64,000 nucleotides of DNA from Anaerolineales bacterium (GTDB taxonomy: Bacteria > Chloroflexota > Anaerolineae > Anaerolineales > E44-bin32). Below the pieces are notes generated by a model. The model searched no databases. It was not told where the DNA came from and saw only the letters and a list, made by a program, of their open reading frames with translations. Positions 15,744 through 57,877 of the stretch are shown one piece after another. Numbering within the stretch: the first letter of the stretch is position 1; each line of letters opens with the position of its first letter. The stretch is taken from NCBI GenBank assembly GCA_034417075.1, contig DAOULU010000006.1:138283-202282 (forward strand). The letters run 5' to 3'. Made by a program: the position numbers and the translations under genes.

Positions 15744-15835
15744 AATACGCAGACGTAGGGAACGATGGACTCCGAAGCGGGCATTTCCTCACTGGGGAGG
15801 TGTTCGAAAGCAAGTCAGAAGGTTTGGAGATGAAA

Positions 15836-18565: not shown

Positions 18566-18647
18566 GAGGCTGCATGCGCATTCAGCGAACGGGAATTTCC
18601 GCAGTGAATAGACACGTGAAACCATCCTGCCCCGTAGGAGGTGCAAG

Positions 18648-21509
18648 ATGAATTCTCGATGGATGAAAAAGCTTGGATTGTGCGTATTGAGCACGTTGTG
18701 GCTCTTGATGTTCACCACACCTATGGCGACACAGGCTGGTGGTGGCGTGTTCGTCGTCAACACCACCGACGATCTGGACGACGGCACCTGTGACGCCACA
18801 CACTGCTCGCTGCGCGAAGCGATCAACGCGGTCAACACCTATGCGGGCACGCAGTACATCTACTTTGATATCCCCGGTCCAGGACCGCACGAGATCATGC
18901 TATGCTCGATGCTTCCATCCTTGAGCGACGACGGAACGTTGATCGACGGCACTTCGGAGCCCGATTATGGCGGCACGGTACCTGTGGTCGTGATCAAGCC
19001 GGGGATATTCAACGTGTCTTCCTATCCTGGCTGCACGCCACCACCCATCGGGATCTGGATCGCCGCCAGCGACATAACCGTGACCGGCCTGAGCATCATC
19101 GGTTTCAGGAGTCCTTCCGCATCCATCGCCGGCGGGATCGTGACTCACATGGGCTCGAACGTCACCATCCAGTGGAACTACATCGGCCTGGATCCCTCCG
19201 GAACTCCCGTCGGGAATCGAGACGGGATCCTGATAGGCTCCGAGGCGTCGCAGATCTATTCCAACCGCATCTCGGGCAACGTCATCGGCATTCACGTCTT
19301 CCGCAGCGACCACATCATCCGCTTGAACTACATCGGAACCGATCCCACGGGCACGTCGACCAGTCCTACGCTGAAAAATTCCGTCGGCATCCTGGTGGAC
19401 AATCCTTCTAGCAACGTGCATATCGGAGGCCCGAATCCCGCCTGGATGAACCTCATTTCGGGCAACGACACGGGCGTCCAAGTCGTTACGGACGGTAACT
19501 TCGTGACCAACAATCGCATCGGCGCAGACGCCAGCGGCAGCGCAGGCTTGGGCAATGACACCGGCGTATGGGTCACGGGCAACGGGAACCAAATCGAAGG
19601 CAATCAGGTCAGTGACAGCCAGATCGGCGTGCTGCTGGCCGGAAACAATAATCAAGTCTCCGGCAACTTCATTGGTACGGACGCAAGCGGCGACCTGGCG
19701 TTAGGCAACGACACCGGCGTCCACATCATCGGCAGTGATAACGTCATCGGCGGCGAGATTCCGATCATGCTCGTGCCGGGCAGCACGGCAGGAAACATCA
19801 TCTCCGGAAATGACACGGGCATCTTCCTCGGCCCGAACGCACAGAACAACTACATTAAAGGCAACAAGATCGGTGCCGGCAACAGCCCCGACTCGAGTCT
19901 GCCCAACACTACAGGCATCCTGCTCGATGGCGCCGACAACAACACGATCGGAGGTATCTATCTACCCATGGAAGCCAACTGGGTGATGCACAATATCCAG
20001 GACGGCATCCAGTTCATCACCACCGCCAGCGACAACCTGGTTCAAAACAATTACATCGCCTGGAACGACCGGGGCATCACCGCCGGCGCCACGACCGGTA
20101 CGTCGATCCAGAATACCTTTCACTACAATAACATCTACTATAACGATCAACTCGGTATCGACCTCTTCCCCTGGGGCGTGACCCCCAATGATCCGGGTGA
20201 CGCTGACAGCGGCGCCAATAATCTACAAAATTTCCCCGTGATCAGTTCGGCTACGACCACGACAGCTCAGGGGACCGCCTGTCTGGGCTGCACGGTGGAG
20301 ATTTTCGAAAGCGAAGAGGATCCCTCCGGATACGGTGAGGGCATATCACCTATCGGTGAAAGCCTTACTGACTCCTCAGGAAATTTCAGCATCAGTGTCG
20401 ATCCGCTCTCTACCGCAGGTGTCTGTGATTACGTAACCGCCACGGCGACCGACGCAAACGGCAACACCTCCGAATTTGCAGAGAACTTCCTGATCGGACC
20501 GTGCTTCACGTTCTCACCCCAACTTTTACTCTTCCTGGGTGTGGTTTTCGTGTTCGGTGGTGGGGCCGCCGGCGGGAGGCTCGGACGCGGTCGCGGCACG
20601 CGGCCAGGCCTGGGAACCGCTGCTGGCGCCGCGCTGGGCGGCGTGATCGGTGCCGGTCTGCTCCTCGCAACCTCCTTCATTCCAATTTTCCGTCTACCAC
20701 CAGAAGAGGAACATGTGGTCTCCGATGGCCTGACAGCGCTCGTCCCCTCCTGTAATGCCTACCTCGATCCGCAGGCATTCGTGCCGCAAGATGGCGCGAT
20801 CGTGCTCGACGAAAACTTCGACTTCGCATGGTCCTGGTTGAACGAGCCTTCGAACGGACGGTTCCGCTGGAGCCTGGATTTGAACGGGCCCGACGATTCC
20901 GGCCAGCAAACGACGGAGGATACTTCGCTTCCCTTCACTGCGTTTGGTTTCGCGGTCGACGACGGGGATCGATTCATCTGGCGACTGACTGGCGAGCAAT
21001 TCGACGACTCTTCCGCAGAATGGAAACCCTTCTGTGCACCATCGGCGTGGCTAACGTTCCAAATCGGACTTTCACCATTGCTGGCGCCACCGTGGACACC
21101 GGAAACGCCGGAAGAACTACCTCCGACGCCCACGAGCACACCCGAGTCTCCTGCGGGAGTCTGTCTGTACACAGCGGTACGTAACAGCAACTGCCGCGCC
21201 AGCGACTATCCGGAGTCGCTGCAGATCGATATCCTCATGCAGGGGGAATCGGCCGAACTCCTGGCCTTGAATCCCGAGTTCACCCACGGTAAATTCGAGC
21301 TCGATCACGGTCAGTGCTGGATCTGGCTGGGATTGCTGGAAGGTCCCGATAACCCATACGGCACGTGCAACGTCCCGGTCATCGATCCGCCGCCGCCACC
21401 GACCGCAACGCCACAAACCTGCACTGCGGATTTAGACGAGGACGCTTGCATCGCAAGTGGAGGCACCTGGTCGGTGACGGGCGCTGCGGGATGTGTATGC
21501 CCGGAGTGA
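18648..21509 (+). CDS. Surface protein paralog 3 of 4 (same architecture)
   Basis: 953 aa. SD AGGAGGTG upstream. HCSLREAINAVN, GIDLFPWGVTPNDPGDADSGANNLQNFP, ATATDANGNTSEFAEN, loop GGRLGRGRGTRPG, end GCVCPE. Confidence 0.9.
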   Translation: MNSRWMKKLGLCVLSTLWLLMFTTPMATQAGGGVFVVNTTDDLDDGTCDATHCSLREAINAVNTYAGTQYIYFDIPGPGPHEIMLCSMLPSLSDDGTLIDGTSEPDYGGTVPVVVIKPGIFNVSSYPGCTPPPIGIWIAASDITVTGLSIIGFRSPSASIAGGIVTHMGSNVTIQWNYIGLDPSGTPVGNRDGILIGSEASQIYSNRISGNVIGIHVFRSDHIIRLNYIGTDPTGTSTSPTLKNSVGILVDNPSSNVHIGGPNPAWMNLISGNDTGVQVVTDGNFVTNNRIGADASGSAGLGNDTGVWVTGNGNQIEGNQVSDSQIGVLLAGNNNQVSGNFIGTDASGDLALGNDTGVHIIGSDNVIGGEIPIMLVPGSTAGNIISGNDTGIFLGPNAQNNYIKGNKIGAGNSPDSSLPNTTGILLDGADNNTIGGIYLPMEANWVMHNIQDGIQFITTASDNLVQNNYIAWNDRGITAGATTGTSIQNTFHYNNIYYNDQLGIDLFPWGVTPNDPGDADSGANNLQNFPVISSATTTTAQGTACLGCTVEIFESEEDPSGYGEGISPIGESLTDSSGNFSISVDPLSTAGVCDYVTATATDANGNTSEFAENFLIGPCFTFSPQLLLFLGVVFVFGGGAAGGRLGRGRGTRPGLGTAAGAALGGVIGAGLLLATSFIPIFRLPPEEEHVVSDGLTALVPSCNAYLDPQAFVPQDGAIVLDENFDFAWSWLNEPSNGRFRWSLDLNGPDDSGQQTTEDTSLPFTAFGFAVDDGDRFIWRLTGEQFDDSSAEWKPFCAPSAWLTFQIGLSPLLAPPWTPETPEELPPTPTSTPESPAGVCLYTAVRNSNCRASDYPESLQIDILMQGESAELLALNPEFTHGKFELDHGQCWIWLGLLEGPDNPYGTCNVPVIDPPPPPTATPQTCTADLDEDACIASGGTWSVTGAAGCVCPE

Positions 21510-21582
21510 AACCGATTCGAGAAGATAACGCCATGGAGTCGATCGAAAACCGCAGCCAGAGATTGATGTAAGGGGTACTTTG

Positions 21583-24183
21583 ATGAGAACTCGCAAACAT
21601 GTTTCCCGAGCCTGGCTAGCCCTGTGCCTGCTGGCGATGATGACACTTGCTTTTCCGATCACCGCGGAGGCCAGCACCTTCGTCGTCAACACGGTCGACG
21701 ATCTCGACGACGGAAACTGCGACGCCGATCATTGCTCTCTGCGCGAGGCGATCAATGCCGCCAATGCCAACCCCGGTGCGGACACGATTGCCTTCGACAT
21801 CTTCGGCGCCGGGCCACACGTGATCAAACTGTGCAGCCTGCTGCCCATACTCACCGACGGCGGGACGACGATTGACGGCACGACGGAACCCAGTTATGCC
21901 GGGACGCCCGTCGTTACTTTAACGCCCTCTGCGGATCCGAGTTGTACCCGACCGCACATCGGCCTATGGATCCAATCCGACGGGAACGTGATCCGTGGGC
22001 TGCACACCATCGACTTCATGCATCCAACACTGCAGCACGAATCCGCCATCTACATCGAGCGCGGCGACGGAAACCTGATCGAGTTAAATCACATCGGCTA
22101 TCAACCTACCTGTTCGCTTTTCAACACACAATACGGTGTCCGCATCGACATGGACGCCGGAAACCAGCGCATTCTCAAAAACGTATTCAACTGTAACGGA
22201 ACGGCAATCGATATCTGGGCTGGCAGCCACGTGATCCGGGACAACCTCATCGGCGTCGATCCCTCCGGCACTACGGCCATCCTCAACGGTCTGGGCATCT
22301 ACGTCTACGAAACCGCCCACGGCTCGACCATTCAGGATAACGTGGTATCGGGCAACATCAGCGCCATGGTAGTCAATTCGGACGACAACAAGATCCTGGG
22401 AAACCGCGTTGGTACGGATTGGTCGACGAACATAGCCATCCCCAATCAAGGCGGCATCAAGGTGAACGGCGATCACAACCGCGTCGGCGGCACGAATCCC
22501 GGCGAGGCAAACATCATCGCCGCCAACACCAGCATTGGTCTTGATCTGTACTGCGGCGCGGAATACAACCAGGTGTATGGCAATATCATCGGCACCAATC
22601 TTTCGGGAACCATCATCATGGGCAACCAGTACGGTGTCACCATTATGGGGAACACGAACATCATCGGGGGTATCGGCTCAGGCGAAGCAAACCGCATCCT
22701 CTTCAGCCAGGAAGCCGGGCTCAGCTTGTACGCTTTGGCGCACAAAAACCGCATCATTGGAAACGAGATCGCTTACGGCCACACGCAGGGCATTCTGGGA
22801 ACGAGTTCGATGGGCTTTCCCGAATCCAACACCTTCAGCCGAAACAGCATCCATCACAATCGTGCCCTGGGAATCGATTTGGAACCTGCGGGCGTCACGC
22901 CAAATGATCCGGGAGACGCGGATTCCGGCCCCAACACACTGCTGAACTTTCCCGTGCTCCAATCCGCCAACGTGAACACGGCCGAAGGAGACGCCTGCCC
23001 GGGCTGTACCGTGGAGATCTTCATCGCCGATTCGGGCAAAGGCGCATTCGGCGAAGGTATGAACTTCGCGGGAAGCGGCAACGCCGATCCGAGCGGTCAT
23101 TTCTCGATCCCGTTAAGCGGGGTCGGTTTCTGCGATCCGCTCACCGCCACCGCCACTGACGGCGCAGCCAACACCTCCGAGTTTGCCAAGAACATCCTGG
23201 CCAGCTGCCTGACGCTCGTATTCCCTTGGCCCGATCTCCTTTTGCTGGCGTTCATTTTTGCTGGCGCCCTGGGCAACGGGCGTCGCGGCCGAGGTAGATC
23301 GCCGGGTCGATATGCCGCCATCGGCGGCGCTGCTGGCGCAGTATTCGGCATCGCCCTGCTGACCCTGGGCAGTGCGCTTCCTAACATGCACTTGGAATTG
23401 CTCCCTCCAAAAGGGGAACCGAAGAGTGAACCACTTTGCAGCGAGTTGCTTCTACCGGATGGGTACGCTCCACCGGCAGGCGCCGTGTTCCAAACCAGCG
23501 AAGACCCATTGCTTTCCTGGACGCCGGGACCCGGCGCCGCCGACGGGATCGTCTGGCAGGTAGAACTCAGTGCACCTGACGGCTCAATTTTGAATCAAAC
23601 GACTCAGGAGACAAGCATCGCCTTCAGCAGCTTCATGTTCCCCACTCAACCAGGATTTTACCGCTGGCGCATCACCGCCAGAGAGGGCAATGCCCCAGGA
23701 GCCCTGGGGAAAGCCTTATGTTCACCGACATCGTGGATGCCGCTTTCCTTCGAAGGACCACAGCGCGAGGAAACACCGGAAGAAACGCCGACATCGACCC
23801 CCACGCCGACTCCCACAGAAGAGACGTCAGCATGTGTCTACACCGCGCTGCAAAATGCCAACTGCCGGGAGAGCGACTACGTCGAATCGGATCAGATGGC
23901 CATTCTCATGCAGGGCGAAAGCGCCGAACTGTTGGCGTTGAACCCCGAGTTTACCCACGGTGAGTTCGAGGTCGATCAGCACCAATGCTGGATCTGGCTC
24001 GGGTTGCTGGACGGTCCTGAAAACCCATACGGCACATGCGACATTCCAGTCGTTGATCCGCCTCCACCGCCGACCGCGACGCCACAGATTTGCACAGAGG
24101 ATTTGAACGAGGAAGATTGCGTGGCCAGCGGCGGTGTATGGTCCGAGGGAATCACGGATCGCCTCTACTGCATCTGTCCTTAA
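21583..24183 (+). CDS. Surface protein paralog 4 of 4 (same architecture)
   Basis: HCSLREAINAANANPGADTIAFDI, GIDLEPAGVTPNDPGDADSGPNTLLNFP, ATATDGAANTSEFAKN, loop NGRRGRGRSPGR, end YCICP. ATG at 21583 (TTG at 21580 also possible). Confidence 0.9.
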   Translation: MRTRKHVSRAWLALCLLAMMTLAFPITAEASTFVVNTVDDLDDGNCDADHCSLREAINAANANPGADTIAFDIFGAGPHVIKLCSLLPILTDGGTTIDGTTEPSYAGTPVVTLTPSADPSCTRPHIGLWIQSDGNVIRGLHTIDFMHPTLQHESAIYIERGDGNLIELNHIGYQPTCSLFNTQYGVRIDMDAGNQRILKNVFNCNGTAIDIWAGSHVIRDNLIGVDPSGTTAILNGLGIYVYETAHGSTIQDNVVSGNISAMVVNSDDNKILGNRVGTDWSTNIAIPNQGGIKVNGDHNRVGGTNPGEANIIAANTSIGLDLYCGAEYNQVYGNIIGTNLSGTIIMGNQYGVTIMGNTNIIGGIGSGEANRILFSQEAGLSLYALAHKNRIIGNEIAYGHTQGILGTSSMGFPESNTFSRNSIHHNRALGIDLEPAGVTPNDPGDADSGPNTLLNFPVLQSANVNTAEGDACPGCTVEIFIADSGKGAFGEGMNFAGSGNADPSGHFSIPLSGVGFCDPLTATATDGAANTSEFAKNILASCLTLVFPWPDLLLLAFIFAGALGNGRRGRGRSPGRYAAIGGAAGAVFGIALLTLGSALPNMHLELLPPKGEPKSEPLCSELLLPDGYAPPAGAVFQTSEDPLLSWTPGPGAADGIVWQVELSAPDGSILNQTTQETSIAFSSFMFPTQPGFYRWRITAREGNAPGALGKALCSPTSWMPLSFEGPQREETPEETPTSTPTPTPTEETSACVYTALQNANCRESDYVESDQMAILMQGESAELLALNPEFTHGEFEVDQHQCWIWLGLLDGPENPYGTCDIPVVDPPPPPTATPQICTEDLNEEDCVASGGVWSEGITDRLYCICP

Positions 24184-24352: not shown

Positions 24353-25498
24353 ATGAGCCTTCCCTCAAGAATAAAATCAACCACACTCGTTTTCATACTG
24401 GTGACGAGCATCATCCTTGCGGCATGTCATTTCCCAGGAATGGGCCCCACGCCGGACTTGTTCGCCACCTCCGCTGCAGAAACCGTTTCCGCACGGCTTA
24501 CGCAACCAGTGGAACCCGGCACAGATGAGACAACAGAGCCCGAGCCGCCCGTGATCGCCACGACCGAAGCCCCACCGACAGAGGAACCCCCTACGCCAAC
24601 GACTACGCTCACCCCCACGATCACGCAGACCACAATCCCCTGCGATCGCGCCAGTTTCGTTTCGGACGTTACCATCCCCGACGGGGAGGAATTAGAACCG
24701 AACGAGAGTTTCACCAAAACCTGGCGGTTGAAAAATAACGGTTCCTGCACCTGGACCTCCAGCTACGCGCTCACTTTCGACAGCGGTGATTCGATGAGCG
24801 GACCTGCATCCAAACAGCTTACCAGTGGAACTGTAGCACCTGGCGCCACAATGGACGTCTCCGTCAATCTGACGGCGCCGAGTTCGCCGGGAACGTACAA
24901 AGGTTACTGGAAACTGCGCAACGGATCGGGAGTGAATTTCGGAATTGGAACTGGCGGCGTAAATCCTTTCTGGGTTGAAATCAAGGTCGTTCCCAACACA
25001 ACCACGGTTACCATTCCCATGAAAGAAATGGAAAGCGGACAAGTGCAGTCCACCGGCTCGACAGGCTTTGGAAGGTACGTGGGGGATAGCCACACGAATA
25101 CGTCCACACAAGCCTTCGTCAGCTTCGATATAAGTGCGATACCTTCGGACGCCATCATCACGGAGGTCACGATAAAGATTAGTAATTTCAACGATACCGG
25201 AGATCCATTTGGCGATTTGGGACCTATGTTCATCTACAAAGATGATTACGGTAGCTTGGATTCGACCGACTATGTAAGCAGCACTCCAGGGACAGGTCGG
25301 CTTATCGCCTGGAATTCAACCTCTCAATTGGGAACCACGATCCCCGACAACGACATGGTCAATGCGGTTCAGAGTAAAGTGGGTAGCAGTCGCTTTAGAG
25401 TTCGATTCCAATTCGCCAACGACACGAACAATGATAACGGCGCCGACTATCTGGAACTGGTCTCGATTGTGATCAAGGTAACCTACTACACGCCATAG
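24353..25498 (+). CDS. Lipoprotein with NBR1-like Ig domain and C-terminal beta-rich domain (cassette A)
   Basis: Lipobox ILAAC, PT/E-rich linker. The CDRASFVSDVTIPDGEELEPNESFTKTWRLKNNGSCTWTSSYALTFDSGD...PGTYKGYWKLRN pattern is typical of bacterial 'next to BRCA1'-type Ig-like domains. SD GAAGGAG upstream. Confidence 0.85.
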   Translation: MSLPSRIKSTTLVFILVTSIILAACHFPGMGPTPDLFATSAAETVSARLTQPVEPGTDETTEPEPPVIATTEAPPTEEPPTPTTTLTPTITQTTIPCDRASFVSDVTIPDGEELEPNESFTKTWRLKNNGSCTWTSSYALTFDSGDSMSGPASKQLTSGTVAPGATMDVSVNLTAPSSPGTYKGYWKLRNGSGVNFGIGTGGVNPFWVEIKVVPNTTTVTIPMKEMESGQVQSTGSTGFGRYVGDSHTNTSTQAFVSFDISAIPSDAIITEVTIKISNFNDTGDPFGDLGPMFIYKDDYGSLDSTDYVSSTPGTGRLIAWNSTSQLGTTIPDNDMVNAVQSKVGSSRFRVRFQFANDTNNDNGADYLELVSIVIKVTYYTP

Positions 25499-25831: not shown

Positions 25832-26980
25832 ATGAGCCCTCCGGCACGATTGAGAACAACACTCATTTTAATGCTCGCGATCAGTATCGTCCTATCGGCG
25901 TGCAATTTCCCCGGTATGGGTGCCACACCGGATCTGTTCGCCACATCTGCAGCGCAAACCGTCGCCGCCCGTCTCACCCAACCAGCGGGACCGGGCAATG
26001 ATGGGACCACGCCACCCGAGCCACCGCAGATTGCAACAACCGAAGCCCCTCCAACGGAGGAACCACCTACGCCCACGTCGACCATAACGCTGACGCCCAC
26101 GATCACGCAGACCACAATCCCCTGCGATCGCGCCAGCTTTATCACGGACGTCACCATCCCCGACGGAGAAGAATTGGAACCGAACGAGAGCTTCACCAAG
26201 ACCTGGCGCCTGAAAAACAACGGCTCCTGCACCTGGACCTCCAGCTATGCGCTCATTTTCGACAGCGGCGATTCCATGGGAGGACCCGCATCCAAACAGC
26301 TTACCAGCGGGACCGTTGCACCCGGTGCCATTATGGACGTCTCCGTCAACTTAACGGCGCCCAGTTCGCCGGGTACCTACAAGGGATACTGGAAACTGCG
26401 CAACGGTTCCGGGGTAAATTTCGGCATCGGTACCGGCGGCACCAATCCGTTCTATGTCGAAATCAAAGTCGTGCCCAACACGGCCACGACTACGGTTCCT
26501 CTCGTCGTTGGCGAAAGCGGTCAGGTCACGAAAAGCACCTATATCTCCGGGGATAAAATTGCCGGAGATAACGGATCGAACGATTCGTCCCAGGCTTTCC
26601 TTAGCTTCAACATCACCGGAATCCCGTCGGATGCCGTCATTACGGAAGTCGTCATCGATCTCGGTGACTTCACCGTGATCGGGACGCCGTTCTCAGCTTT
26701 GGGGCCACTGTTTATCTACAAGGATGATTATGGCGGTTTGGATGCCTCCGACTTCGTCAACAGCACACCATCTTCCGGCCGACTCATAGCCTGGAATTCA
26801 ACATCAAGCTTGGGGAACGCCGTCTCGGATAACGACATGGTCAACGCCCTGCAAACCAAAGTGGGATCGAGTCGCTTCAGATTGCGTCTGCAGTTCAACA
26901 AACAAACCGACAACGATGGCGCAAGCGATCACCTGACTTTCAACACTGTGATCCTCAAAGTCACCTACTACACGCCCTGA
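25832..26980 (+). CDS. Lipoprotein with NBR1-like Ig domain and C-terminal beta-rich domain (cassette B, paralog of 24353-25498)
   Basis: Lipobox VLSAC. The N-terminal two thirds are near-identical to cassette A and the C-terminal third is clearly more diverged. SD GAAGGAG upstream. Confidence 0.85.
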   Translation: MSPPARLRTTLILMLAISIVLSACNFPGMGATPDLFATSAAQTVAARLTQPAGPGNDGTTPPEPPQIATTEAPPTEEPPTPTSTITLTPTITQTTIPCDRASFITDVTIPDGEELEPNESFTKTWRLKNNGSCTWTSSYALIFDSGDSMGGPASKQLTSGTVAPGAIMDVSVNLTAPSSPGTYKGYWKLRNGSGVNFGIGTGGTNPFYVEIKVVPNTATTTVPLVVGESGQVTKSTYISGDKIAGDNGSNDSSQAFLSFNITGIPSDAVITEVVIDLGDFTVIGTPFSALGPLFIYKDDYGGLDASDFVNSTPSSGRLIAWNSTSSLGNAVSDNDMVNALQTKVGSSRFRLRLQFNKQTDNDGASDHLTFNTVILKVTYYTP

Positions 26981-27003: not shown

Positions 27004-27040
27004 AAAATCCCCGCGAATCACCCAACGTCGCGGGGATTTT
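27004..27040 (+). terminator. Rho-independent terminator of cassette B
   Basis: Perfect 12-bp stem AAAATCCCCGCG / CGCGGGGATTTT with a 13-nt loop. The stem is related to the cassette A terminator stem. Confidence 0.7.
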
Positions 27041-27117
27041 CGCTCTCCAGTGAAGATCATATTGTGTATAAGTTAATCGCATTTCAAACGGTTGAATTGG
27101 CAGTTTTAAAGAACGCG

Positions 27118-27126
27118 TGATAGATT
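27118..27126 (+). promoter_or_regulatory. Extended -10 element (TGaTAGATT) 6 nt upstream of ATG 27133, suggesting a leaderless start
   Basis: TGATAGATTcaagttATG. No SD between the -10 element and the start codon. Confidence 0.4.
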
Positions 27127-27132
27127 CAAGTT

Positions 27133-28809
27133 ATGGTTGCGAATGTGCTCGTAGTTGAAGAGACGGAAGAATTCGGGTCTTTGATCCGTAACGCGCTCGA
27201 AGACACCGGGCGGTATCAGGTGTCACTGGCGATGAACGCTGACGAGGCGATCGAGATCGGAGATCGGGAAAATATCCACTTGCTAATCATCGACTTCGAT
27301 CTCTCCGAAGCCGATGCACCGGCCTGTATTCAACGCATCCAATCCACCAATCCGGACATGGCCATTATCGCCATTCCGCCCAACAACGATCCACACGATC
27401 CTGCCTTTTCAAGTCTCTCAATCCGCGGCGTGCTGACGAAGCCTTTTTACCTTCCCGAACTCAACGAGATCGTCTCCGCAGCGATAGATCTGCCAACGCA
27501 GGCTGTGGAAACGGATCAGATCCGGGAATCCATCCCGCAGGAACCCCCTTTCAGCGAGGCCGCGGAACCACCAACGCCCTGGCCTAACGACGTGGATCAA
27601 GCCACGCAGCACCTCGCCAGGGTATGCGGCGATACGTCTGCCGAAGCGTTGATCCTCTTGCATCACGGCCAGCGATGGGCACAAACGGGTGGAATTACAC
27701 CGGATCAAGCCGAAGGACTTGCGGTCAAGATTGCTGAAATTGGAGTCGGCGCTGGCGCCCGTGGAGCAATCACCACCCTGACTCGTTTACCAGGCACAAA
27801 GCGGGATTGCATCCTGTATGCCAATGGTCTGATACCGAATTGGATTTTGGCGCTGGTTTATCCCTCCGGCACATCCTTCGGGATCATCCGCCGCCAGGCT
27901 GGGCACACCGCGGACAGACTCAAATACATGGACCTGGATGATCACGAGGAAGACCTCCCTCCCATACCGACGTCCGCGCCCGATACCGCACCGATTTCAG
28001 CTCGAGACGAAGAAGATACATCGTTCGATGAAATCTTCGGTGTGGAGCCAGATGCCCAGGAAATTCCGTTTTTCGAAGATCTCGACCTGCCTCCCAAACC
28101 GATCCCTGCGCCCGATACCGCACCGATTTCTGCTCGAGACGAAGAAGATACATCGTTCGATGAAATCTTCGGTGCGGAGCCAGATGCCCAGGAAATTCCG
28201 TTTTTCGAAGATCTCGATCTTCCCCCTCCGGAGCCGGATGAAACGCCAGCGAAGGTTGACGAGGACCGGATCGAAGAAGCGGACACCGCTGCAGCGATTC
28301 CGGGGGATTGGGTGCCGGACAAACCCAAACCTGAATCCCACCTGCCTTTCCTCGAAGAAGGCGCCTTCCCGAGTACGGACTCCGCATCAACAGCGCTGGA
28401 GCCCATCCCGCTGCCCGACGCGGAGTACTACCTCCCCGTCACTGCAGTGCTTGTGCCTCGGTTCCCGGAACACCGCCTGACGGGTCCCCTTGTGGAAAAT
28501 CTACAGGAATGGGTGGTTCGCCTTTGCCTGGCGTGGGATTGGCGCGCGGATGAAGTGTCGATCGAACCCGATTATCTCTGCCTGACGATGAGCATTTCCC
28601 CGGAGACGGCGCCTTCGAACGCGGTTCTCCGGCTTCGGGATGATCTATCACAGCGGATACTCAGCGCATTTCCCGAATTTGTAGACGACCTGCCTTCCCG
28701 ACGTTTTTGGGCGCGCAGCTACCTGCTGATCACCGGCGGACCACCGCCAGCGAAACGACTGCAAGAGTTCGTCGAAACCACACGCAAGAGCCAAGGGATC
28801 GAAATCTAA
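27133..28809 (+). CDS. Receiver (REC)-like domain, acidic repeat linker, C-terminal IS200/TnpA (Y1 transposase)-like domain lacking the HUH motif
   Basis: N-terminus VLVVEETEEF...HLLIIDFDL...LTKPF resembles a CheY-like receiver, with EE in place of the DD pocket. The C-terminus aligns by eye to IS200 TnpA: YLPVTAVLVPRF (YHIVFxxKYR), PDYLCLTMSISPE (xDHxHxLxxxPP), RFWARSYLLITGG (FWxRGYYxxTVG). Confidence 0.7.
   Translation: MVANVLVVEETEEFGSLIRNALEDTGRYQVSLAMNADEAIEIGDRENIHLLIIDFDLSEADAPACIQRIQSTNPDMAIIAIPPNNDPHDPAFSSLSIRGVLTKPFYLPELNEIVSAAIDLPTQAVETDQIRESIPQEPPFSEAAEPPTPWPNDVDQATQHLARVCGDTSAEALILLHHGQRWAQTGGITPDQAEGLAVKIAEIGVGAGARGAITTLTRLPGTKRDCILYANGLIPNWILALVYPSGTSFGIIRRQAGHTADRLKYMDLDDHEEDLPPIPTSAPDTAPISARDEEDTSFDEIFGVEPDAQEIPFFEDLDLPPKPIPAPDTAPISARDEEDTSFDEIFGAEPDAQEIPFFEDLDLPPPEPDETPAKVDEDRIEEADTAAAIPGDWVPDKPKPESHLPFLEEGAFPSTDSASTALEPIPLPDAEYYLPVTAVLVPRFPEHRLTGPLVENLQEWVVRLCLAWDWRADEVSIEPDYLCLTMSISPETAPSNAVLRLRDDLSQRILSAFPEFVDDLPSRRFWARSYLLITGGPPPAKRLQEFVETTRKSQGIEI
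27952..28215 (+). repeat. In-frame tandem direct repeat, 2 x 132 bp (44 aa each), plus a partial third start
   Basis: Unit 1 27952-28083 is DLPPIPTSAPDTAPISARDEEDTSFDEIFGVEPDAQEIPFFEDL. Unit 2 28084-28215 is DLPPKPIPAPDTAPISARDEEDTSFDEIFGAEPDAQEIPFFEDL. DLPPPEPD follows. Confidence 0.95.
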
Positions 28810-28885
28810 CCCACAGCCTCCCCCACGAATTGCGCCTGGTGCTACAATTTAATACCTCACCGAATAATCCAAGGGAGCGTCCAGG

Positions 28886-31663
28886 ATGACTACCCAACCC
28901 CGATTATTTCTCATCGATGGCCATGCACTCGCATACCGCACTTACTTTGCATTAACGCGAGCAGGCGATCCCTCCCGCTGGATAACGAAATCCGGCGAGC
29001 CGACGGCCGGAACGTACGGCTTCGTCTCTGTGCTTCTCTCTCTCCTCGAGCGTGAGAAACCAGAGTATCTCGCCGTCTCTTTCGATACCGGCCGCACGTT
29101 CCGTGATGATCTCTTCGACGAGTACAAGGCCACGCGCGAAAAGATGCCCGACGATTTACGACTGCAAATCAAACGAATCCGGGAGGTCATCGCGGCCTTC
29201 GGTATCCCCATTCTCGAAGCCGAAGGATACGAAGCCGACGACGTGCTCGGCACCATCGCTCGAAAAGCGGCGGCACAGGATGTCCATACCGTCATCGTTA
29301 CTGGCGACCGGGATCTCCTACAGCTTGCCAGCGAGAACGTGACTATTCAATTATCTGGCCAGAAACTCTCCGAAGCGGCCGACTACGGACCAGAACAGGT
29401 TCGCCAGCGCTATGATCTCGATCCCGAGCAGCTGGTCGATCTGAAGGCCCTCGTCGGTGACAGCAGCGACAACATCCCGGGCGTGCGTGGCGTGGGTGAG
29501 AAGACTGCCACTTCGCTGCTCCAAAAATACCAAACCCTGGATAACATCTTCGCTAACCTGGAGGAGGTGAAAACCCGTTTCCGCAATAAATTAGAACAGG
29601 GTCGAGATGATGCGTATCTGAGCAGGGAGTTGGGCAAAATCGAAACGGATGTGCCTATCAAGTTCGATCTCGAATCCTGCCGTGCACAAGCCTACAATCG
29701 AGATAAAATCGTCCAGCTATTTCGGGAACTTGAATTCCGTACTTTGCTCAACCGCATCCAACTCGAAAAAGACAGCGGCGAACACCAGATGAGCCTATTC
29801 GTCAGCGACCAGCAGGGCAGCGGTGCAGAATCACGAACCGTGCACACCGTCGACGATGCCGAAAAACTCGAAAAATTGATCCAGCGACTGGAAGCGGCTG
29901 ACCACATTGCGTTCGACGTCGAAACGACCAGCACGGATGCGAGCCAGGCCAATCTCGTTGGAATATCGCTTGCCACCCAACCCGGAGAAGGATTTTACGT
30001 CCCCGTTGGGCATATCTCTCCCAAACACGGATCGCAACTGCCTGTAGAAACGGTTATCGAGGCTCTGCGGCACCCCCTGACCGATTCCGGCAAGCCCAAA
30101 GTGGGACACAATCTGAAGTACGATTACACCCTACTCGCACGCAACGGGCTTCGTGCGTCGCCGCTCGCATTCGATACCATGTTGGCCGAGTGGCTCTGCG
30201 ATCCCGCCTCCCGCAGCCTGGGATTGAAAAGCCTCGCCTGGATCCGCCTGGGTGTGGAAATGACGGACATCGAAACGCTGATCGGCCGTGGAAAGAATCA
30301 GCGCTCCATGGCTGATGTGCCTATTGCAGAAGTCGCGCCGTATGCCGCAGCGGACGCCGAAATCTGCCTGCGCCTCCTGCCCATCCTCGAGAAGGAATTA
30401 AAGGAGAAGAACCAGACGAAATTGTTCCAAGAGCTTGAGATGCCGTTGATTCCCATCCTGGCGCAGATGGAGATGACGGGAATCAGCCTGGACATCGATT
30501 TCCTGCGACAGTTTTCCGAGGAGCTGCAGGAACGAATGGCGGAAATCGAAGCTCAAATATTCGAAGAAGCCGGCAGCCAGTTCAACGTCAATTCGACACA
30601 GCAGTTATCGACCGTGCTCTTCGAGGATCTTAAGCTCGACCCGCCTGATCGTGCCCGCCGCACGTCTTCCGGTCACTACTCCACTGCCGCGTCGGTGCTC
30701 GAGGAACTACGCGACGCACATCCGATCATCGATCACATACTCGCCTTTCGCGAGATCGCAAAGATAAAATCCACCTACGCCGACGCCTTACCCCAGGAAG
30801 TCAACCCTCAAACGGGTCGCGTGCACACGTCCTTCAATCAAACCGGTTCGGTGACCGGCCGATTGGCTTCATCGAACCCCAACTTGCAGAACATTCCGGT
30901 ACGCACTGAAATTGGTCGTGAAATCCGCCGGGCTTTTATCGCTGAAAGCGGTCATACATTGCTCAGCGTGGACTACTCTCAAATCGAACTGCGCATCGTT
31001 GCCCACATTTCTGAGGATGAAGCGATGCTGCAAGCCTTTCGCGACGATCAAGATATCCACAGCGCTACTGCAGCGGCGATCTTTGGCGTCGAACCTGGAG
31101 ACGTATCGCCGAATCTGCGCCGACGGGCGAAAGCGATCAATTTCGGACTGATCTACGGAATGAGTCCCTTCGGGTTGACCCGCACCACGGATCTGACCCT
31201 CGCTGAAGCAGAAAATTTCGTGAAAGCATATTTCGATCGCTTTCCCGGTGTGCAGCGATATCTGGAGCAAACTCGACAAGAAGCCTCACAAGTCGGCTAC
31301 GTTTCGACGCTGCTGGGTCGAAGGCGATACTTCCCGCAATTAGCCGCATGGTCTACCGTATCCGAACAGGCTCGCGCCCGAGCGATGCGCGAGGCGATCA
31401 ACGCCCCGATCCAGGGCACGGCGGCCGACATCATTAAAATCGCCATGATACGACTCCCACAGGCACTACGCGAACAGAAATTGAAAGCCGATATGTTGAT
31501 TCAGGTTCACGACGAGTTGGTGCTCGAATGTCCGCAAAGCGAACTATCCAAAACCACCGCCGTCGTTCAGAAAATCATGCAAGGCGCATTCGACCTTCGC
31601 GTATCGTTGAAGACCGACGCCAAAGCGGGAGTGACCTGGGCGGGCATGAAACCCATAGAATAA
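28886..31663 (+). CDS. polA: DNA polymerase I
   Basis: 925 aa. 5'-nuclease N-terminus, 3'-5' exonuclease-like domain, polymerase motifs DYSQIELR, RRRAKAINFGLIYG, QVHDELV. SD AAGGGAG upstream. Confidence 0.97.
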   Translation: MTTQPRLFLIDGHALAYRTYFALTRAGDPSRWITKSGEPTAGTYGFVSVLLSLLEREKPEYLAVSFDTGRTFRDDLFDEYKATREKMPDDLRLQIKRIREVIAAFGIPILEAEGYEADDVLGTIARKAAAQDVHTVIVTGDRDLLQLASENVTIQLSGQKLSEAADYGPEQVRQRYDLDPEQLVDLKALVGDSSDNIPGVRGVGEKTATSLLQKYQTLDNIFANLEEVKTRFRNKLEQGRDDAYLSRELGKIETDVPIKFDLESCRAQAYNRDKIVQLFRELEFRTLLNRIQLEKDSGEHQMSLFVSDQQGSGAESRTVHTVDDAEKLEKLIQRLEAADHIAFDVETTSTDASQANLVGISLATQPGEGFYVPVGHISPKHGSQLPVETVIEALRHPLTDSGKPKVGHNLKYDYTLLARNGLRASPLAFDTMLAEWLCDPASRSLGLKSLAWIRLGVEMTDIETLIGRGKNQRSMADVPIAEVAPYAAADAEICLRLLPILEKELKEKNQTKLFQELEMPLIPILAQMEMTGISLDIDFLRQFSEELQERMAEIEAQIFEEAGSQFNVNSTQQLSTVLFEDLKLDPPDRARRTSSGHYSTAASVLEELRDAHPIIDHILAFREIAKIKSTYADALPQEVNPQTGRVHTSFNQTGSVTGRLASSNPNLQNIPVRTEIGREIRRAFIAESGHTLLSVDYSQIELRIVAHISEDEAMLQAFRDDQDIHSATAAAIFGVEPGDVSPNLRRRAKAINFGLIYGMSPFGLTRTTDLTLAEAENFVKAYFDRFPGVQRYLEQTRQEASQVGYVSTLLGRRRYFPQLAAWSTVSEQARARAMREAINAPIQGTAADIIKIAMIRLPQALREQKLKADMLIQVHDELVLECPQSELSKTTAVVQKIMQGAFDLRVSLKTDAKAGVTWAGMKPIE

Positions 31664-31781: not shown

Positions 31782-34130
31782 ATGACTGACCAGTTAAAAC
31801 TTTTTGAAGAATCGATGCGCCTTGGGCACTCTGCAGCCTGGGACCTCAAGTGGGACCGGGCAATTGAGTTCTACCGCAAGGCATTGGTGCAACTACCGGA
31901 AGATCCAGGTGCACTCACAAGTTTGGGATTGGCGCTGTTGGAGACCGAGCAGTATAAGGAAGCGCTTTCGGTCTATCATAAGGCAGCGAAGGTCACACCC
32001 AACGATCCGATTCCCCTCGAACGCTGCGCAGAGATCTTCGAACGCTTGGGGCAAATTAGCGACGCTGTCATGCAGCGCAATGCTGCAGCGCAACGCTACT
32101 TGGCTCGAAAGGACGCCCAGAAGGCCATCGATAATTGGATTCACATCGCGCGTCTGACTCCGGACGATCTGCACACGCGCTCCACCTTGGCGCTCACCTA
32201 CGAACGCACCGGAAATGCTCGCCAGGCTGTGTACGAATACATCAACGTGGCTTCCATACTACAAGGCGCGGGGAACACCGAGCGCGCCATCGAAGCCGTA
32301 CAGCGTGCCTTGCGCCTCGTCCCCGGGCACCCTGAGGCAGGTAAAGCCTTGCGAGCTCTCAAGGTCGGCGAGACACTAGCCCCGCCCACACAGCCGCGCG
32401 GCGCGACTGCGCCACTACGAATGGCCAAAGTCCAGGAATACATCAAAGCGGAAGCTGTGGAGACGGAAGCAGATGACGATGAAGTGGCAGATCCCGAGGT
32501 CGCGGCGCAGCGCGATGCACTCAAGATTCTGGCCGGCCTGCTGTTCGATGAACCCAGGGGAGATGACGAAGATGATCTCGATGAGGCGGAGGACAAACCT
32601 TCCGGCCTTTCCGCACTCACTGGAGGGCTGAGCCTTTCGGGCCGGAAATCCATCGGTCAGCCTCAGATGTACCGCTATCTCGGACAGGCGATCGATCTGC
32701 AAACACGTGGCAAAGACAAGGAAGCCATCAAGGAATTCGAACGAGCGATCAAAGCTGGTTTGGATCACCGCGCGGCACATTACAACCTTGGTATTCTCCA
32801 CAAAAAGTCCGAGGATTACCAGGCCGCTAAAAAGCATCTTGCCGCCGCCTTGGGCTACGAAGACTTAGATCTGGGAATCAACCTCGCCCTCGGTCGGATC
32901 GCTCGCACTGAGAAAGATCTACCTGAAGCTGCCAGATATCTGCTGCAGGCGCTGCGAATCGCCGATTCGTTGTCCGTCGATTCCAGTCAATCGGCGTCCC
33001 TCAATCAATTTTACGACGCCATGCTTGTTTCCCAGGAAGAAGGCAATGAAGAAGAACTTGATCGTATCGTTGAGAGCACGCTCAACTTCTTGAGTGGACC
33101 AGACTGGATGCGCCGTCTGCGGCAGGCGCGCATGCAATTGGAAAGCGAAGGCACGGAAAGTTCGGCTGTCGTTCCGATCGCCGAGATGCTCGCTGTGGGC
33201 GGAACGGACCGAGTGCTTCAATCCCTGGGCCGAATCGACGATCTTCTCGTCCGAGAATTGTACGCCGCGGCCATGGAAGAAGCCATGCTGACGCTGGATC
33301 ACGCACCTTCCTATCTGGCGCTCCATATGCGCATGGCTGAAATCATGATCCGCAGCGGCCGCCGGGAAGCAGGCTTGGAAAAAATGGGAATCGTCGCCGA
33401 AACGCATCGTGTGCGCGGTGAAAATTCTCAGGCCGCAGATGTCTACGCAAAGATCATCCGCGAAGCCCCGGTCAATATTCCGGCCAGAAACCGTTTGATC
33501 GAACTTTTCGTCCAACAAGATCGGCACAAAGAGGCTCTGGAACATTACATCGACTTAGCGGATATATATATGCAAATGGCAGAACTAGACTTGGCCAGAA
33601 AAGCCTTGGCAGCTGCACTCAGCCTTGCGCAGGACACTTCTGTTGACCGCGAATGGTCCGTAAAAATATTGCGGGAAATGGGCGATATTGACCTCTCTCG
33701 CCTGGATTGGCGCCGCGCATTGCGCGTCTATTCCCAAATCCGCACCCTGGATCCAAGCGACGAAAAGGCACGCACGAACGTGATCGATTTGAATTTACGT
33801 CTCGCGCAGGATGAACAAGCCGCTCAGGAATTGGATGGTTTGCTTGAATATCTCGTTCAGCACGATCGCGGTCAAGACGCTTTGACCTTCATTGAAGAAC
33901 TGGCTCGTGAGCATCCCGGGAAAAGCATTCTGCACGAACGTCTTGCCGAAGCGTACCTCGCTGCCGGTCGCAAAGCCGATGCGATTGCACAATTCGACGC
34001 GCTGGGTGAGATCCTTCTCGACAACGGGAATAATGCCGAAGCAATTCGAATCATCGAAAGAATTATTACTCTCCAACCTCCCGACATCGAAGGATATCAA
34101 GAATTGCTCAACAATCTGAGGAAAAATTGA
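31782..34130 (+). CDS. Tetratricopeptide (TPR) repeat protein
   Basis: 782 aa of Ala/Leu-rich 34-aa helical repeats (e.g. YKEALSVYHKAAKVTPNDP, AHYNLGILHKKSEDYQAAKKHL). Confidence 0.8.
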   Translation: MTDQLKLFEESMRLGHSAAWDLKWDRAIEFYRKALVQLPEDPGALTSLGLALLETEQYKEALSVYHKAAKVTPNDPIPLERCAEIFERLGQISDAVMQRNAAAQRYLARKDAQKAIDNWIHIARLTPDDLHTRSTLALTYERTGNARQAVYEYINVASILQGAGNTERAIEAVQRALRLVPGHPEAGKALRALKVGETLAPPTQPRGATAPLRMAKVQEYIKAEAVETEADDDEVADPEVAAQRDALKILAGLLFDEPRGDDEDDLDEAEDKPSGLSALTGGLSLSGRKSIGQPQMYRYLGQAIDLQTRGKDKEAIKEFERAIKAGLDHRAAHYNLGILHKKSEDYQAAKKHLAAALGYEDLDLGINLALGRIARTEKDLPEAARYLLQALRIADSLSVDSSQSASLNQFYDAMLVSQEEGNEEELDRIVESTLNFLSGPDWMRRLRQARMQLESEGTESSAVVPIAEMLAVGGTDRVLQSLGRIDDLLVRELYAAAMEEAMLTLDHAPSYLALHMRMAEIMIRSGRREAGLEKMGIVAETHRVRGENSQAADVYAKIIREAPVNIPARNRLIELFVQQDRHKEALEHYIDLADIYMQMAELDLARKALAAALSLAQDTSVDREWSVKILREMGDIDLSRLDWRRALRVYSQIRTLDPSDEKARTNVIDLNLRLAQDEQAAQELDGLLEYLVQHDRGQDALTFIEELAREHPGKSILHERLAEAYLAAGRKADAIAQFDALGEILLDNGNNAEAIRIIERIITLQPPDIEGYQELLNNLRKN

Positions 34131-38604: not shown

Positions 38605-40239
38605 ATGTCTGAGGCGCAAGAAAAAGCGACATCTCCGCGTGTAATGGTGATCGCGGACGTCGAAAGCAATGCAGAAGCGCTCATTGATCGTGTCTTTCGC
38701 CCTGCCGGCATTCAGGCTTCAACCTCAAACACGGAAGGCCCACCACCGGACATCCTCGTTCTCGACATCACTCAATTACGCGGAGATCCGCTGGGGAATT
38801 TACGCAACATACGCGCACAAGGTGAAGAAGCGCCCGCCATCGTACTCGCGGCGCACTTCCCCCATTCTCGCTTGAGAGACATGTTCCGTCTCGGTGTGAA
38901 TGACTTTTTACTCAAACCTTACCGGCCGGAGGCATTATGTCAAGCCGTACGCGACATGGGAGAAAGCCGCTCGATTGAAGTCAATACCAAGGTATTGGCG
39001 AGAAGGCTGGAGGGGATGCGCGAACAATTCCGACGTCGTTCGGAGGAAATTCGCCTCTTGACCGAGATCGGCCGTGTAGTCGTCCGTCTCGGTGATCTGG
39101 ATTCCATCCTTCGTCGCGTTGTGGAAGCAGCCGCCTTTGTGACCGACGCCGAAGAAGCCAACATCTACCTGGCCGAGCCGGGAACGAAGGAATTGGTCCT
39201 GCGCGCCACAAAGAGTATTAACGAACGACATGCTTCATTAAAGCGTTTGCGTGTCGAGGACACGTTGACGGGAGAAGTGTTCTCGACCGGGGAGCCGATG
39301 CTGCGCCAACCTTCTCTGGAAGGCGGACCGATCAAGGTACAAACGGGCTTTATGGTGCAATCACTTGTAAAAGTTCCCATACGAGCGCGGAACAGCATCG
39401 TCGGCGTGCTGGGCATATACAACGGCATCACCCCGCGCCGTTTCAGTCAACATCACCTTACCCTGCTGATGGCACTCGGTAACTGGACGGGTGTGGCGCT
39501 CGAATACGCCAACCTGATGCGTGAGGCGGAGAATCCGGCAGCGTCCAACCAGACCCTCACAGCCGTTCCTAACGATCTGATCGAAGGTCTTGATAAATGC
39601 ATTCAAATCATCGAACCGATGATCAACGGTGCAACGGAAGCATCGAGCAGAGAGCAGCGGCGTAGCCTAAACGAACTCCACAGGAATCTACTTATGCTAC
39701 GCGCCATGCCCATGGCGACGCTCGACGTCGAAGAAGCACAAGAAATGGTCGACTTGCCCGGTGTTATGGAGCAGGTTCTCCGGGAAATGCGGCGTCCGGC
39801 AGCGCGCAGAGGTTTGGAGATTATCATCGACGAAAGCCCCCCGCTGCCTTTATTTCGCGGCGATAGCAACCGCACGCATCGCATCATTCAAACGCTCGTC
39901 GCCGCCGCAATCCGTCGAACGTCGCGGGGACGTATTGTTCTCGAAGCCCACCGTGTCGAAGTCCTCAAGGGTCGCAGTACGAGCATTCCCATCCCGAGGC
40001 ACATTCAACTCAACGATGGGTTGTGGGCCATTGTGAGAATTTCGGATACGAGCCCCGGCCTCTCACCGGATACGGTCCACGCGCTGACAAAAGAAGAAAT
40101 CGATCCGTCCGCCGGACAGATCGGACCGGGGCTTTCCTTGGGTGAGATTCGCATGATGCTTGAAAGCATGAACGGCAGTTTGTGGTACGAGCATACACCC
40201 GCAAGCACCAGCATCGTATTCTCACTTCCAGTAACCTGA
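38605..40239 (+). CDS. Receiver-like, GAF, histidine-kinase-like ATPase signalling protein
   Basis: N-terminal REC-like fold (DILVLDI..., LLKPY), GAF region (LDSILRRVVEAAAFVTDAEEANIYL...VGVLGIYN), C-terminal HATPase-like region with G1 DTSPGL and G2 GPGLSLG. The N-box Asn is not evident (LVAAAIRRT). Confidence 0.7.
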   Translation: MSEAQEKATSPRVMVIADVESNAEALIDRVFRPAGIQASTSNTEGPPPDILVLDITQLRGDPLGNLRNIRAQGEEAPAIVLAAHFPHSRLRDMFRLGVNDFLLKPYRPEALCQAVRDMGESRSIEVNTKVLARRLEGMREQFRRRSEEIRLLTEIGRVVVRLGDLDSILRRVVEAAAFVTDAEEANIYLAEPGTKELVLRATKSINERHASLKRLRVEDTLTGEVFSTGEPMLRQPSLEGGPIKVQTGFMVQSLVKVPIRARNSIVGVLGIYNGITPRRFSQHHLTLLMALGNWTGVALEYANLMREAENPAASNQTLTAVPNDLIEGLDKCIQIIEPMINGATEASSREQRRSLNELHRNLLMLRAMPMATLDVEEAQEMVDLPGVMEQVLREMRRPAARRGLEIIIDESPPLPLFRGDSNRTHRIIQTLVAAAIRRTSRGRIVLEAHRVEVLKGRSTSIPIPRHIQLNDGLWAIVRISDTSPGLSPDTVHALTKEEIDPSAGQIGPGLSLGEIRMMLESMNGSLWYEHTPASTSIVFSLPVT

Positions 40240-57846: not shown

Positions 57847-57877
57847 TGTAGGGGCGGGTTTGAAACCCGCCCCTACA
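57847..57877. repeat. GTAG-headed perfect GC-rich palindrome (REP-like hairpin / bidirectional terminator)
   Basis: TGTAGGGGCGGGTTT-G-AAACCCGCCCCTACA, with 15-nt arms. It lies between the convergent SPFH and nadB genes. Confidence 0.7.

Follow-up and report, generated by a model that had tools for sequence, protein, structure and literature searches.

A receiver-domain protein of uncultured Anaerolineales ends in a conserved former IS200 transposase domain without the catalytic residues

What does a transposase domain do at the end of a signaling-type protein, and is it still part of a mobile element? The question is raised by an open reading frame at 27133–28809 of a 64,000-nucleotide stretch of DNA from an Anaerolineales bacterium (Chloroflexota; assembly GCA_034417075.1, contig DAOULU010000006.1, positions 138,283 to 202,282 of the forward strand), which we analyzed at its full length and refer to as the window. 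The frame lies on the forward strand, as do the features of its own locus described below, starts with ATG, and encodes a protein of 558 amino acids (aa) composed of a receiver, a Roadblock/LC7 domain, an acidic disordered linker, and an IS200-type TnpA domain that is predicted to be catalytically dead. We found it to be a conserved gene of uncultured Anaerolineales, encoding a signaling-type protein that ends in a former IS200 transposase domain, and its product is best read as that of a single-copy host gene and not of a mobile element.

An initial annotation, made from the sequence by eye, had described a receiver fused to an IS200/TnpA-like domain that lacks the HUH metal-binding motif. 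Profile searches returned significant matches for both parts: Response_reg (PF00072) at aa 5–114 with 45.5 bits (Pfam threshold 30.2) and Y1_Tnp at aa 437–548 with 40.1 bits (E = 4.7e-10; Pfam threshold 23). In an AlphaFold model built from 30 homologues, three confident domains (aa 1–120, 150–268, and 430–555; predicted local confidence, pLDDT, about 85–93) are joined by two disordered segments (aa 121–147 and 268–429). Pfam, sequence matches in the PDB, and Foldseek agree on the identity of the receiver and the TnpA domain; the annotation had listed these two correctly and had overlooked the Roadblock/LC7 domain, the linker motifs, and the adjacency of polA.

The last domain (aa 430–558; 28420–28806) is an exapted Y1 domain of the HUH-fold, IS200/IS605 TnpA type. 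The C-terminal 128 aa alone match solved IS200-family transposases (S. tokodaii 2ec2, E = 8.7e-6; ISDra2 2xo6 and 2xm3, about 1e-5), and with a family profile of the domain the match to 2ec2 improved to E = 6e-14. The equivalog model for IS200 transposase in NCBIfam (NF033573) scored 41 bits, under its cut-off of 55. The domain was modeled with a pLDDT of about 90, and a Foldseek search of the PDB with the whole model placed TnpA of IS200, ISDra2, and IS608 at the top (E = 1e-9 to 1e-7; target template-modeling scores 0.7–0.8), followed by receiver domains. Hidden Markov model (HMM) alignments pair PDYLCL with PDHIHL, DLSQRIL with GKSARLIL, and FWARSY with LWTRSY, so that the element-by-element mapping onto TnpA first made by eye holds.

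The catalytic residues are gone from this fold. At the position of the HUH motif stand Y481-L482-C483 (28573–28581), with PDYLCL lying opposite PDHIHL in 2ec2 and PDHVHL in ISDra2, as had been proposed, and a threonine lies opposite the metal-binding glutamine of the IS200/IS605 enzymes. The claim that the tyrosine position is retained proved mistaken. Y530 in FWARSY, on which it was based, is a structural tyrosine and not the nucleophile; the catalytic tyrosine sits on the last helix (Y-x-x-x-Q; kkYIee in 2ec2, qkY132Iesq in ISDra2), where its counterpart is F546 (28768–28770) in LQEFVETT. With the HUH histidines replaced by Y-L-C and the catalytic tyrosine by F546, both halves of the active site are missing, and the alignments indicate that the whole catalytic center has been lost. 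Compared with IS200/IS605 TnpA (PF01797; 2ec2, 2f4f, ISDra2 2xm3, IS608 2vic), the protein shares the fold, the non-catalytic signatures, and the C-terminal helix that bears the nucleophile in the enzymes, whereas it differs in its HUH and tyrosine positions and in being encoded by a seemingly single-copy, syntenic gene without subterminal hairpins or tnpB. It belongs to this group as a domain and not as a transposase, as judged from the HUH motif, the tyrosine, and the insertion sequence (IS) organization.

These substitutions are a property of the family. Among 179 family members, H-x-H occurs in one, which has phenylalanine at the tyrosine position, and in no member is H-x-H combined with the catalytic tyrosine. 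The first HUH position is tyrosine in 129 of the 179, the commonest motif at this site across the family is P-[DE]-Y-L-Q-W (so that most members have Y-L-Q where the window has Y-L-C), and the catalytic position is occupied by phenylalanine in 134 sequences and by tyrosine in 44. TnpA signatures outside the active site are kept, including LxPRFPxH, DLSxRI, and FWA. Just past F546, on the former catalytic helix, the family has an essentially invariant new motif, T-R-x-x-Q-G, with R551 in 179/179 and Q554 in 178/179 members. R443, W470, F525, and W526 are also counted among the invariant residues. The ratio of nonsynonymous to synonymous substitution rates (dN/dS) among close relatives was 0.09–0.14 for the dead TnpA domain, 0.10–0.30 for the receiver, and 0.24–0.56 for the linker. 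Since its dN/dS is as low as or lower than that of the receiver and well below that of the linker, the dead TnpA domain is functional, under strong purifying selection, and not decaying. The one H-x-H in 179 sequences and the low dN/dS also dispose of a sequencing error as the source of the lost HUH motif.

How widespread is this protein? A word-indexed homology search gave 37 relatives, an undercount owing to its word filter, and all of those with an organism name came from Anaerolineales/Chloroflexi metagenome-assembled genomes (MAGs). An exhaustive HMM search with the C-terminal profile recovered 2078 cluster representatives at E ≤ 0.001, of which 874 remained at E ≤ 1e-10 and 335 at E ≤ 1e-30; these 335 are clusters at 50% identity and set a lower bound for the size of the family. 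With one distant member as query, 1218 clusters at 90% identity were found at E ≤ 1e-20. All sources that name an organism are Anaerolineales/Chloroflexota MAGs, apart from one entry labeled only ‘bacterium’. The fusion itself recurs: receiver, Roadblock, and dead TnpA domain are present together in 127 of the 179 sequences, most of the others being fragments, and family proteins measure 500–800 aa with the TnpA domain at the end. Database labels for them are automatic and inconsistent (‘CheY-like’, ‘RayT’, ‘IS200/IS605 family transposase’).

Several apparent exceptions to this architecture were rejected. A 310-aa form without a receiver (P0035) is truncated by a contig end, and three short ‘stand-alone’ members on long contigs (P0236, P0272, P0299) are frameshift fragments, with polA split at the same loci. 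The contigs of loci L026, L027, and L028 are long (180–320 kb) and carry many frameshifts, and in them polA and the studied gene are each broken into several called genes; because frameshifts split the gene in this way, databases contain false ‘stand-alone transposase’ proteins.

As the initial annotation had held, this is no insertion sequence: the gene occurs once in the window, its position is fixed in 30 loci, and neither IS ends nor tnpB accompany it. We found no tnpB, IS-type ends, or second copy within the window, and no flanking tnpB gene in the window or in any locus with tabulated genes; one locus (L028) has an OrfB_IS605 gene some 6 kb upstream, with at least nine genes in between. 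In most clusters the protein is encoded on one or two contigs, with contigs of up to 3.1 Mb. As a candidate for an IS end, the only strong inverted repeat near the gene (27004–27040; AAAATCCCCGCGA / TCGCGGGGATTTT) was rejected; it is a terminator-type hairpin with a 13-bp perfect inverted repeat that ends the upstream gene, which encodes an N_BRCA1_IG domain, and it is conserved in four close relatives. A link to GTAG-headed palindromes had also been suggested. No repeats like the repetitive extragenic palindromic (REP) sequences flank the gene, and a REP or REPtron arrangement was rejected, with one GTAG palindrome in the window and near-matches at chance level (6 found, 4.8 expected). That single palindrome lies 29 kb away, and the suggested link finds no support. 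It occupies 57847–57877 between convergent genes, has perfect 15-bp arms (TGTAGGGGCGGGTTT / AAACCCGCCCCTACA), is found nowhere else in the window, and is perhaps a bidirectional terminator and not a REP.

We then examined the setting in which the gene is held. Directly downstream lies polA, encoding DNA polymerase I (Pol I; 925 aa; 28886–31663; assigned from the Pfam domains of orthologues), followed by a gene for a 782-aa tetratricopeptide repeat (TPR) protein (31782–34130), the third member of a conserved trio. All 30 related loci whose downstream DNA suffices show the order studied gene, polA, TPR gene; the set is made up of 6 exact-protein look-ups, 19 species-representative genomes, and 5 more distant members. 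The order persists at 24–34% protein identity and despite differing outer flanks, with N_BRCA1_IG, Lactamase_B, SurE, or MFS genes upstream and DAC-YbbR-Der, COX15, LepA, or MG2/HAD genes downstream. The constant place of the gene just upstream of polA suggests that the enzyme of a mobile element has been taken over for a function of the host.

The trio is not a strict operon, the studied gene and polA being neighbors with separate promoters. By consensus scan the studied gene has a promoter of its own (27097–27126), TTGGCA, 18 nt, and TG-n-TAGATT, which is nearly invariant across the window and four relatives (L007–L010), while the sequence 5' of it diverges. Since 6 nt separate the end of this promoter from the ATG, the mRNA probably has little or no leader. 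For polA, an extended -10 element TGCTACAAT (28840–28848) lies within the 76-nt spacer after the studied gene; in spacers extracted from 29 loci, this element or a variant such as TGCTAGAAT or GATTACAAT occurs in 25 of the 27 distinct sequences. A hairpin ligand at the polA promoter was rejected as a general feature, with a stem enclosing the -10 beating shuffled controls in only 3/25 loci. At L024, L026, and L027 a 7–10 bp stem presents the -10 element in its loop. In two of these, the distant relatives L026 (7519–7604) and L027 (7681–7886), the stem in the polA spacer has the loop TATAAT, followed by a T-run in L026; these structures look like terminators and may double as the polA -10 element. 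In the lineage of L019, which lacks the receiver, an inverted repeat of ~20 bp (1599–1702; CCAATCGCCAATCTCTAATC ... GATTAGAGATTGGCGATTGG) is situated just 5' of the polA -10 element, and it was not seen at other loci.

Between the receiver and the linker, aa ~150–268 (27580–27936) form a domain that is best assigned to the Roadblock/LC7 (MglB-like) group. This call rests on a profile match: a profile of the region, built from 15 homologues and run against PDB sequences, matched Myxococcus xanthus MglB (6h5b, E = 1.8e-5; 6izw, 2.1e-5) and, at 0.008–0.09, Thermus MglB, with each match spanning positions 8–119 of 121. Only this search revealed MglB, and Pfam gave no match in aa 140–270, PF03259 included. 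The AlphaFold elements (H154–165, E172–177, E180–186, H190–203, E213–218, E225–234, E237–244, H249–269; pLDDT 86–91) describe an alpha-beta-beta-alpha-beta-beta-beta(-alpha) fold, and the Roadblock-containing GTPases RagA/C and Gtr1/2 are among the Foldseek matches, with alignments of about 320 columns that we read as receiver plus Roadblock. Roadblock/LC7 domains normally form dimers and either dock or regulate small NTPases. No gene for an MglA-type GTPase is linked in any of the loci.

The linker itself (aa 269–429; 27937–28419) is rich in proline and glutamate, carries a net charge of about -40, and is disordered in the model, with pLDDT below 50. Part of it arose by a 132-bp tandem duplication (27952–28217), two copies 94% identical that correspond to a 44-aa repeat, each with one EIPFFEDLDLPP motif. 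Close relatives carry this unit once in 514-aa forms, twice in 558-aa forms, and three times in a 602-aa form, which alters the number of EIPFFEDLDLPP motifs. Conserved in the alignment and in motif counts, EIPFFEDLDLP occurs at aa 310–320 (28060–28092) and again at aa 354–364 (28192–28224), and in the family the motif continues as ...LPPP[DE]P, giving the family form EIPFFEDLDLPPP[DE]P. Two further motifs made of invariant alignment columns, IPGDWVP (aa 389–395) and HLPFLEE (aa 403–409), follow at 28297–28359. P390, D392, W393, and P395 are invariant in the near family (IPxDWVP), and [ILVM]Px[DE][WF]xP is found in 62 of 127 linkers of the wider family.

The receiver (REC; aa 1–120; 27133–27492; pLDDT about 88) has five strands and their helices in a (beta-alpha)5 fold and was matched by Foldseek to Spo0F and the XynC REC at a root mean square deviation of about 2.2 Å. 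Alignment with CheY and family statistics mark it as atypical. D54, in LLIIDFDL, and K103 align with CheY D57 and K109, K103-P-F is present, and E9-E10 occupy the place of the acidic pair D12/D13, the LLIIDFDL context, K-P-F, and E-E being features that the initial annotation had listed; the position of the Thr/Ser switch (CheY T87) is I81. Across 127 family receivers, D54 is kept in 123 and K or R103 in 114, and the K-P-F motif is conserved. Every one of the 127 has a hydrophobic residue (I, V, L, F, or M) at the T87 position. In place of the metal-binding acidic pair 56 have Thr-Pro, most of the family has T-P or D-A/S, and an acidic residue is rare at the second site. Many family members have receivers that score under the Pfam threshold, and in a small subclade (L019, L021, L022) the genes genuinely lack a receiver. 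In the eight loci with tabulated genes, the studied gene has no histidine kinase gene beside it. On these grounds the initial description of the protein as phosphorylation-controlled is doubtful; control through canonical Asp phosphorylation is improbable in most family members, and for the window's clade it is uncertain. About 10 kb downstream, an open reading frame at 38605–40239 combines a weak receiver match with GAF and HATPase_c domains; it is histidine-kinase-like and could be a phospho-donor.

How, then, might such a protein work? We tentatively favor, at somewhat less than an even chance, a reading in which the former transposase serves as an exapted, non-catalytic HUH-fold binding module, likely for single-stranded or fork DNA, in a host protein that acts with Pol I. 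The domain would bind without cutting, and its most likely ligand would be single-stranded, hairpin, or fork-like DNA, as recognized by its transposase ancestors. The protein would act with Pol I and with the TPR protein of the adjacent gene, in lagging-strand processing or repair. Dimerisation, docking of partners, and regulation would fall to its receiver-Roadblock end and its linker motifs, with the TPR protein as a candidate partner. That the domain binds DNA, that the protein functions with Pol I, and what the linker motifs contact are inferred from the following. Pol I processes lagging-strand and repair intermediates. IS608 TnpA acts on the lagging strand and has both fork-like DNA and the beta clamp among its binding partners (PMC5027513). 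Given this lagging-strand binding by TnpA ancestors and the invariant polA neighbor, single-stranded or fork DNA would be the likeliest ligand and Pol I the likeliest context. R551 and Q554 lie five and eight residues past F546 on the same helix, close to helical-repeat spacing, which suggests that the old active-site cleft may survive as a binding pocket. A dimer is to be expected because Roadblock domains and TnpA both dimerise, and since TPR proteins bind extended peptides, the co-conserved TPR protein may be where the linker motifs dock. A bolder form of this proposal, which we consider possible but rather unlikely, is an exaptation across the whole order Anaerolineales: the dead TnpA domain would still find hairpin or fork single-stranded DNA on the lagging strand, the protein would be a sensor or adaptor that recruits or regulates Pol I, the TPR protein would dock on the linker motifs, and the atypical receiver and Roadblock domain would provide switch control.

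Several observations weigh against a DNA-binding partner of Pol I. Because polA has its own promoter, and in some lineages a terminator separates it from the studied gene, adjacency need not mean co-transcription, and the synteny could partly reflect common ancestry within one order. No conserved hairpin or repeat was found near the gene as a possible ligand. In the window the dead TnpA domain is acidic (net charge -5; isoelectric point, pI, 4.9) while the family median pI is 8.5 (range 4.4–10.7), so that binding to nucleic acid is not obvious for this clade.

Alternative explanations share parts of this evidence. The protein could be a genuine two-component regulator, in which a kinase phosphorylates D54 and thereby switches a dead HUH output that binds single-stranded DNA or REP-like GTAG hairpins. 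The conservation of D54, of K or R103, and of K-P-F, the acidic E9-E10 at the metal-binding site in this clade, the above-threshold Response_reg match, and the REC-GAF-HATPase_c protein downstream all speak for it; the hydrophobic residue that replaces Thr/Ser throughout, the Thr-Pro pairs, the sub-threshold and missing receivers, the lack of an adjacent kinase in any tabulated locus, and the single, far-off GTAG palindrome speak against it, and we consider it unlikely. It seems improbable to a similar degree that the protein is a pure scaffold whose dead HUH fold binds no nucleic acid and serves dimerisation or docking, in an MglB/MglC/RomR-like platform for a small GTPase or other partner. 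Such a scaffold would suit a middle domain related to MglB, a receiver-Roadblock unit that superposes on the G-domain and Roadblock of Rag/Gtr, a receiver with a Pro-rich acidic region that recalls RomR, the acidity of the dead domain here, and the obligate dimers of IS200 TnpA (PMC3597680). However, no MglA-like GTPase gene is linked in any locus, the invariant neighbors of the studied gene are polA and the TPR gene and not motility or polarity genes, the dead domain is mildly basic family-wide, and it keeps the TnpA signatures that lie beyond the catalytic center.

A smaller chance falls to a local transcription factor, with the dead TnpA domain as a DNA-binding output at the adjacent polA-TPR promoter. 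Regulators are often encoded beside their targets, the gene is always directly 5' of polA, and the spacer contains the conserved extended -10, which at three loci is presented in the loop of a stem. Yet the spacers hold no conserved operator or hairpin apart from the -10, stems do no better than chance in 22 of 25 loci, there is little known reason for a housekeeping gene such as polA to have a regulator of its own, and the Roadblock domain and the 160-aa motif-bearing linker would be left unexplained. Finally, the names ‘IS200/IS605 family transposase’ and ‘RayT’, so often given to members in databases, would suit an IS200 copy that is decaying after a chance fusion with a response-regulator gene, or an active transposase that appears without its HUH motif through a sequencing error. 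To this we give next to no credence, as it is already contradicted by the same architecture and substitutions in hundreds of diverged clusters, a dN/dS of about 0.1, a syntenic gene on one or two contigs in most clusters, and the absence of IS ends and tnpB.

The family also differs from the systems it most resembles. Like the RAYT (TnpA-REP) proteins, it is a Y1/HUH-fold protein from an IS200-like ancestor that has become a single-copy host gene, and the automatic annotation of the Joint Genome Institute (JGI) names many family members ‘RayT’. RAYTs keep the HUH motif and the tyrosine, are active nucleases, and are located between REP sequences (PMC3333891, PMC8266576, PMC6006769), whereas the present family lacks the catalytic residues and flanking REPs and is fused to a receiver and a Roadblock domain. 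A 2018 survey of TnpA-Y1 proteins recognizes 12 subclasses, all with a conserved HuH/Y core as their defining feature, and a term search of its text gave no mention of receiver fusions (PMC6006769). A receiver followed by a Roadblock/LC7-related domain is known from REC-NitrOD3 of Thaumarchaeota, which are two-domain archaeal proteins (PMC5847659); in the present protein an extended acidic linker and the dead TnpA domain come after this pair, and the receiver is without the Thr/Ser switch. With MglB, MglC, and RomR of Myxococcus xanthus the family shares the sequence match of its middle domain to MglB (E = 2e-5), as well as a receiver, a Pro-rich acidic low-complexity region, and a Roadblock domain, features that are spread there over RomR and MglB/MglC. 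It differs from them in having no linked MglA-type GTPase, in its genomic partners polA and the TPR gene, and in the extra HUH-fold domain; beyond the Roadblock domain the resemblance is architectural rather than one of demonstrated homology. Our literature search found no published description of the receiver-Roadblock-linker-dead TnpA architecture.

Other features of the window were noted in passing. Upstream of the studied gene lie tandem paralogues of 381 and 382 aa (24353–25498 and 25832–26980; 86% nucleotide identity over 300 nt), and in related loci the proteins corresponding to them have an N_BRCA1_IG (NBR1 FW-like) domain; the two paralogues occupy this place in the present clade and not in more distant lineages. 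Farther upstream, four tandem paralogues (13107–24183) encode large, secreted-looking proteins of 867–953 aa and form repeat families with a period of about 2.8 kb; the one of the four that was scanned (13107–15743) gave a NosD-type beta-helix match. Other genes of DNA metabolism in the window are uvrA (63–2726) and a gene for a ComEC-type competence protein (41820–44195), and a block of uvrA, queG, radical-SAM, N_BRCA1_IG, and polA genes is found at locus L001 as well.

The protein is a domesticated transposase domain within a receiver-domain protein, and it represents a large, conserved, uncharacterised family. To our knowledge, domesticated Y1 transposases in bacteria have been known only as active RAYT nucleases; this family would show the Y1 fold recruited without its chemistry, as a binding module in a signaling-type protein. 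The combination of receiver, Roadblock, and dead HUH domains adds an unusual output architecture to the range of receiver-domain proteins. The labels ‘IS200/IS605 family transposase’ and ‘RayT’, which many members bear, inflate the number of mobile elements counted in Chloroflexota MAGs. As the family is large, under strong selection, and locked next to polA, it indicates an unrecognised host function, possibly in DNA replication or repair, in a major and almost uncultured order. Should the order-wide exaptation hold, the protein would be a new accessory factor of replication or repair that derives from a mobile element.

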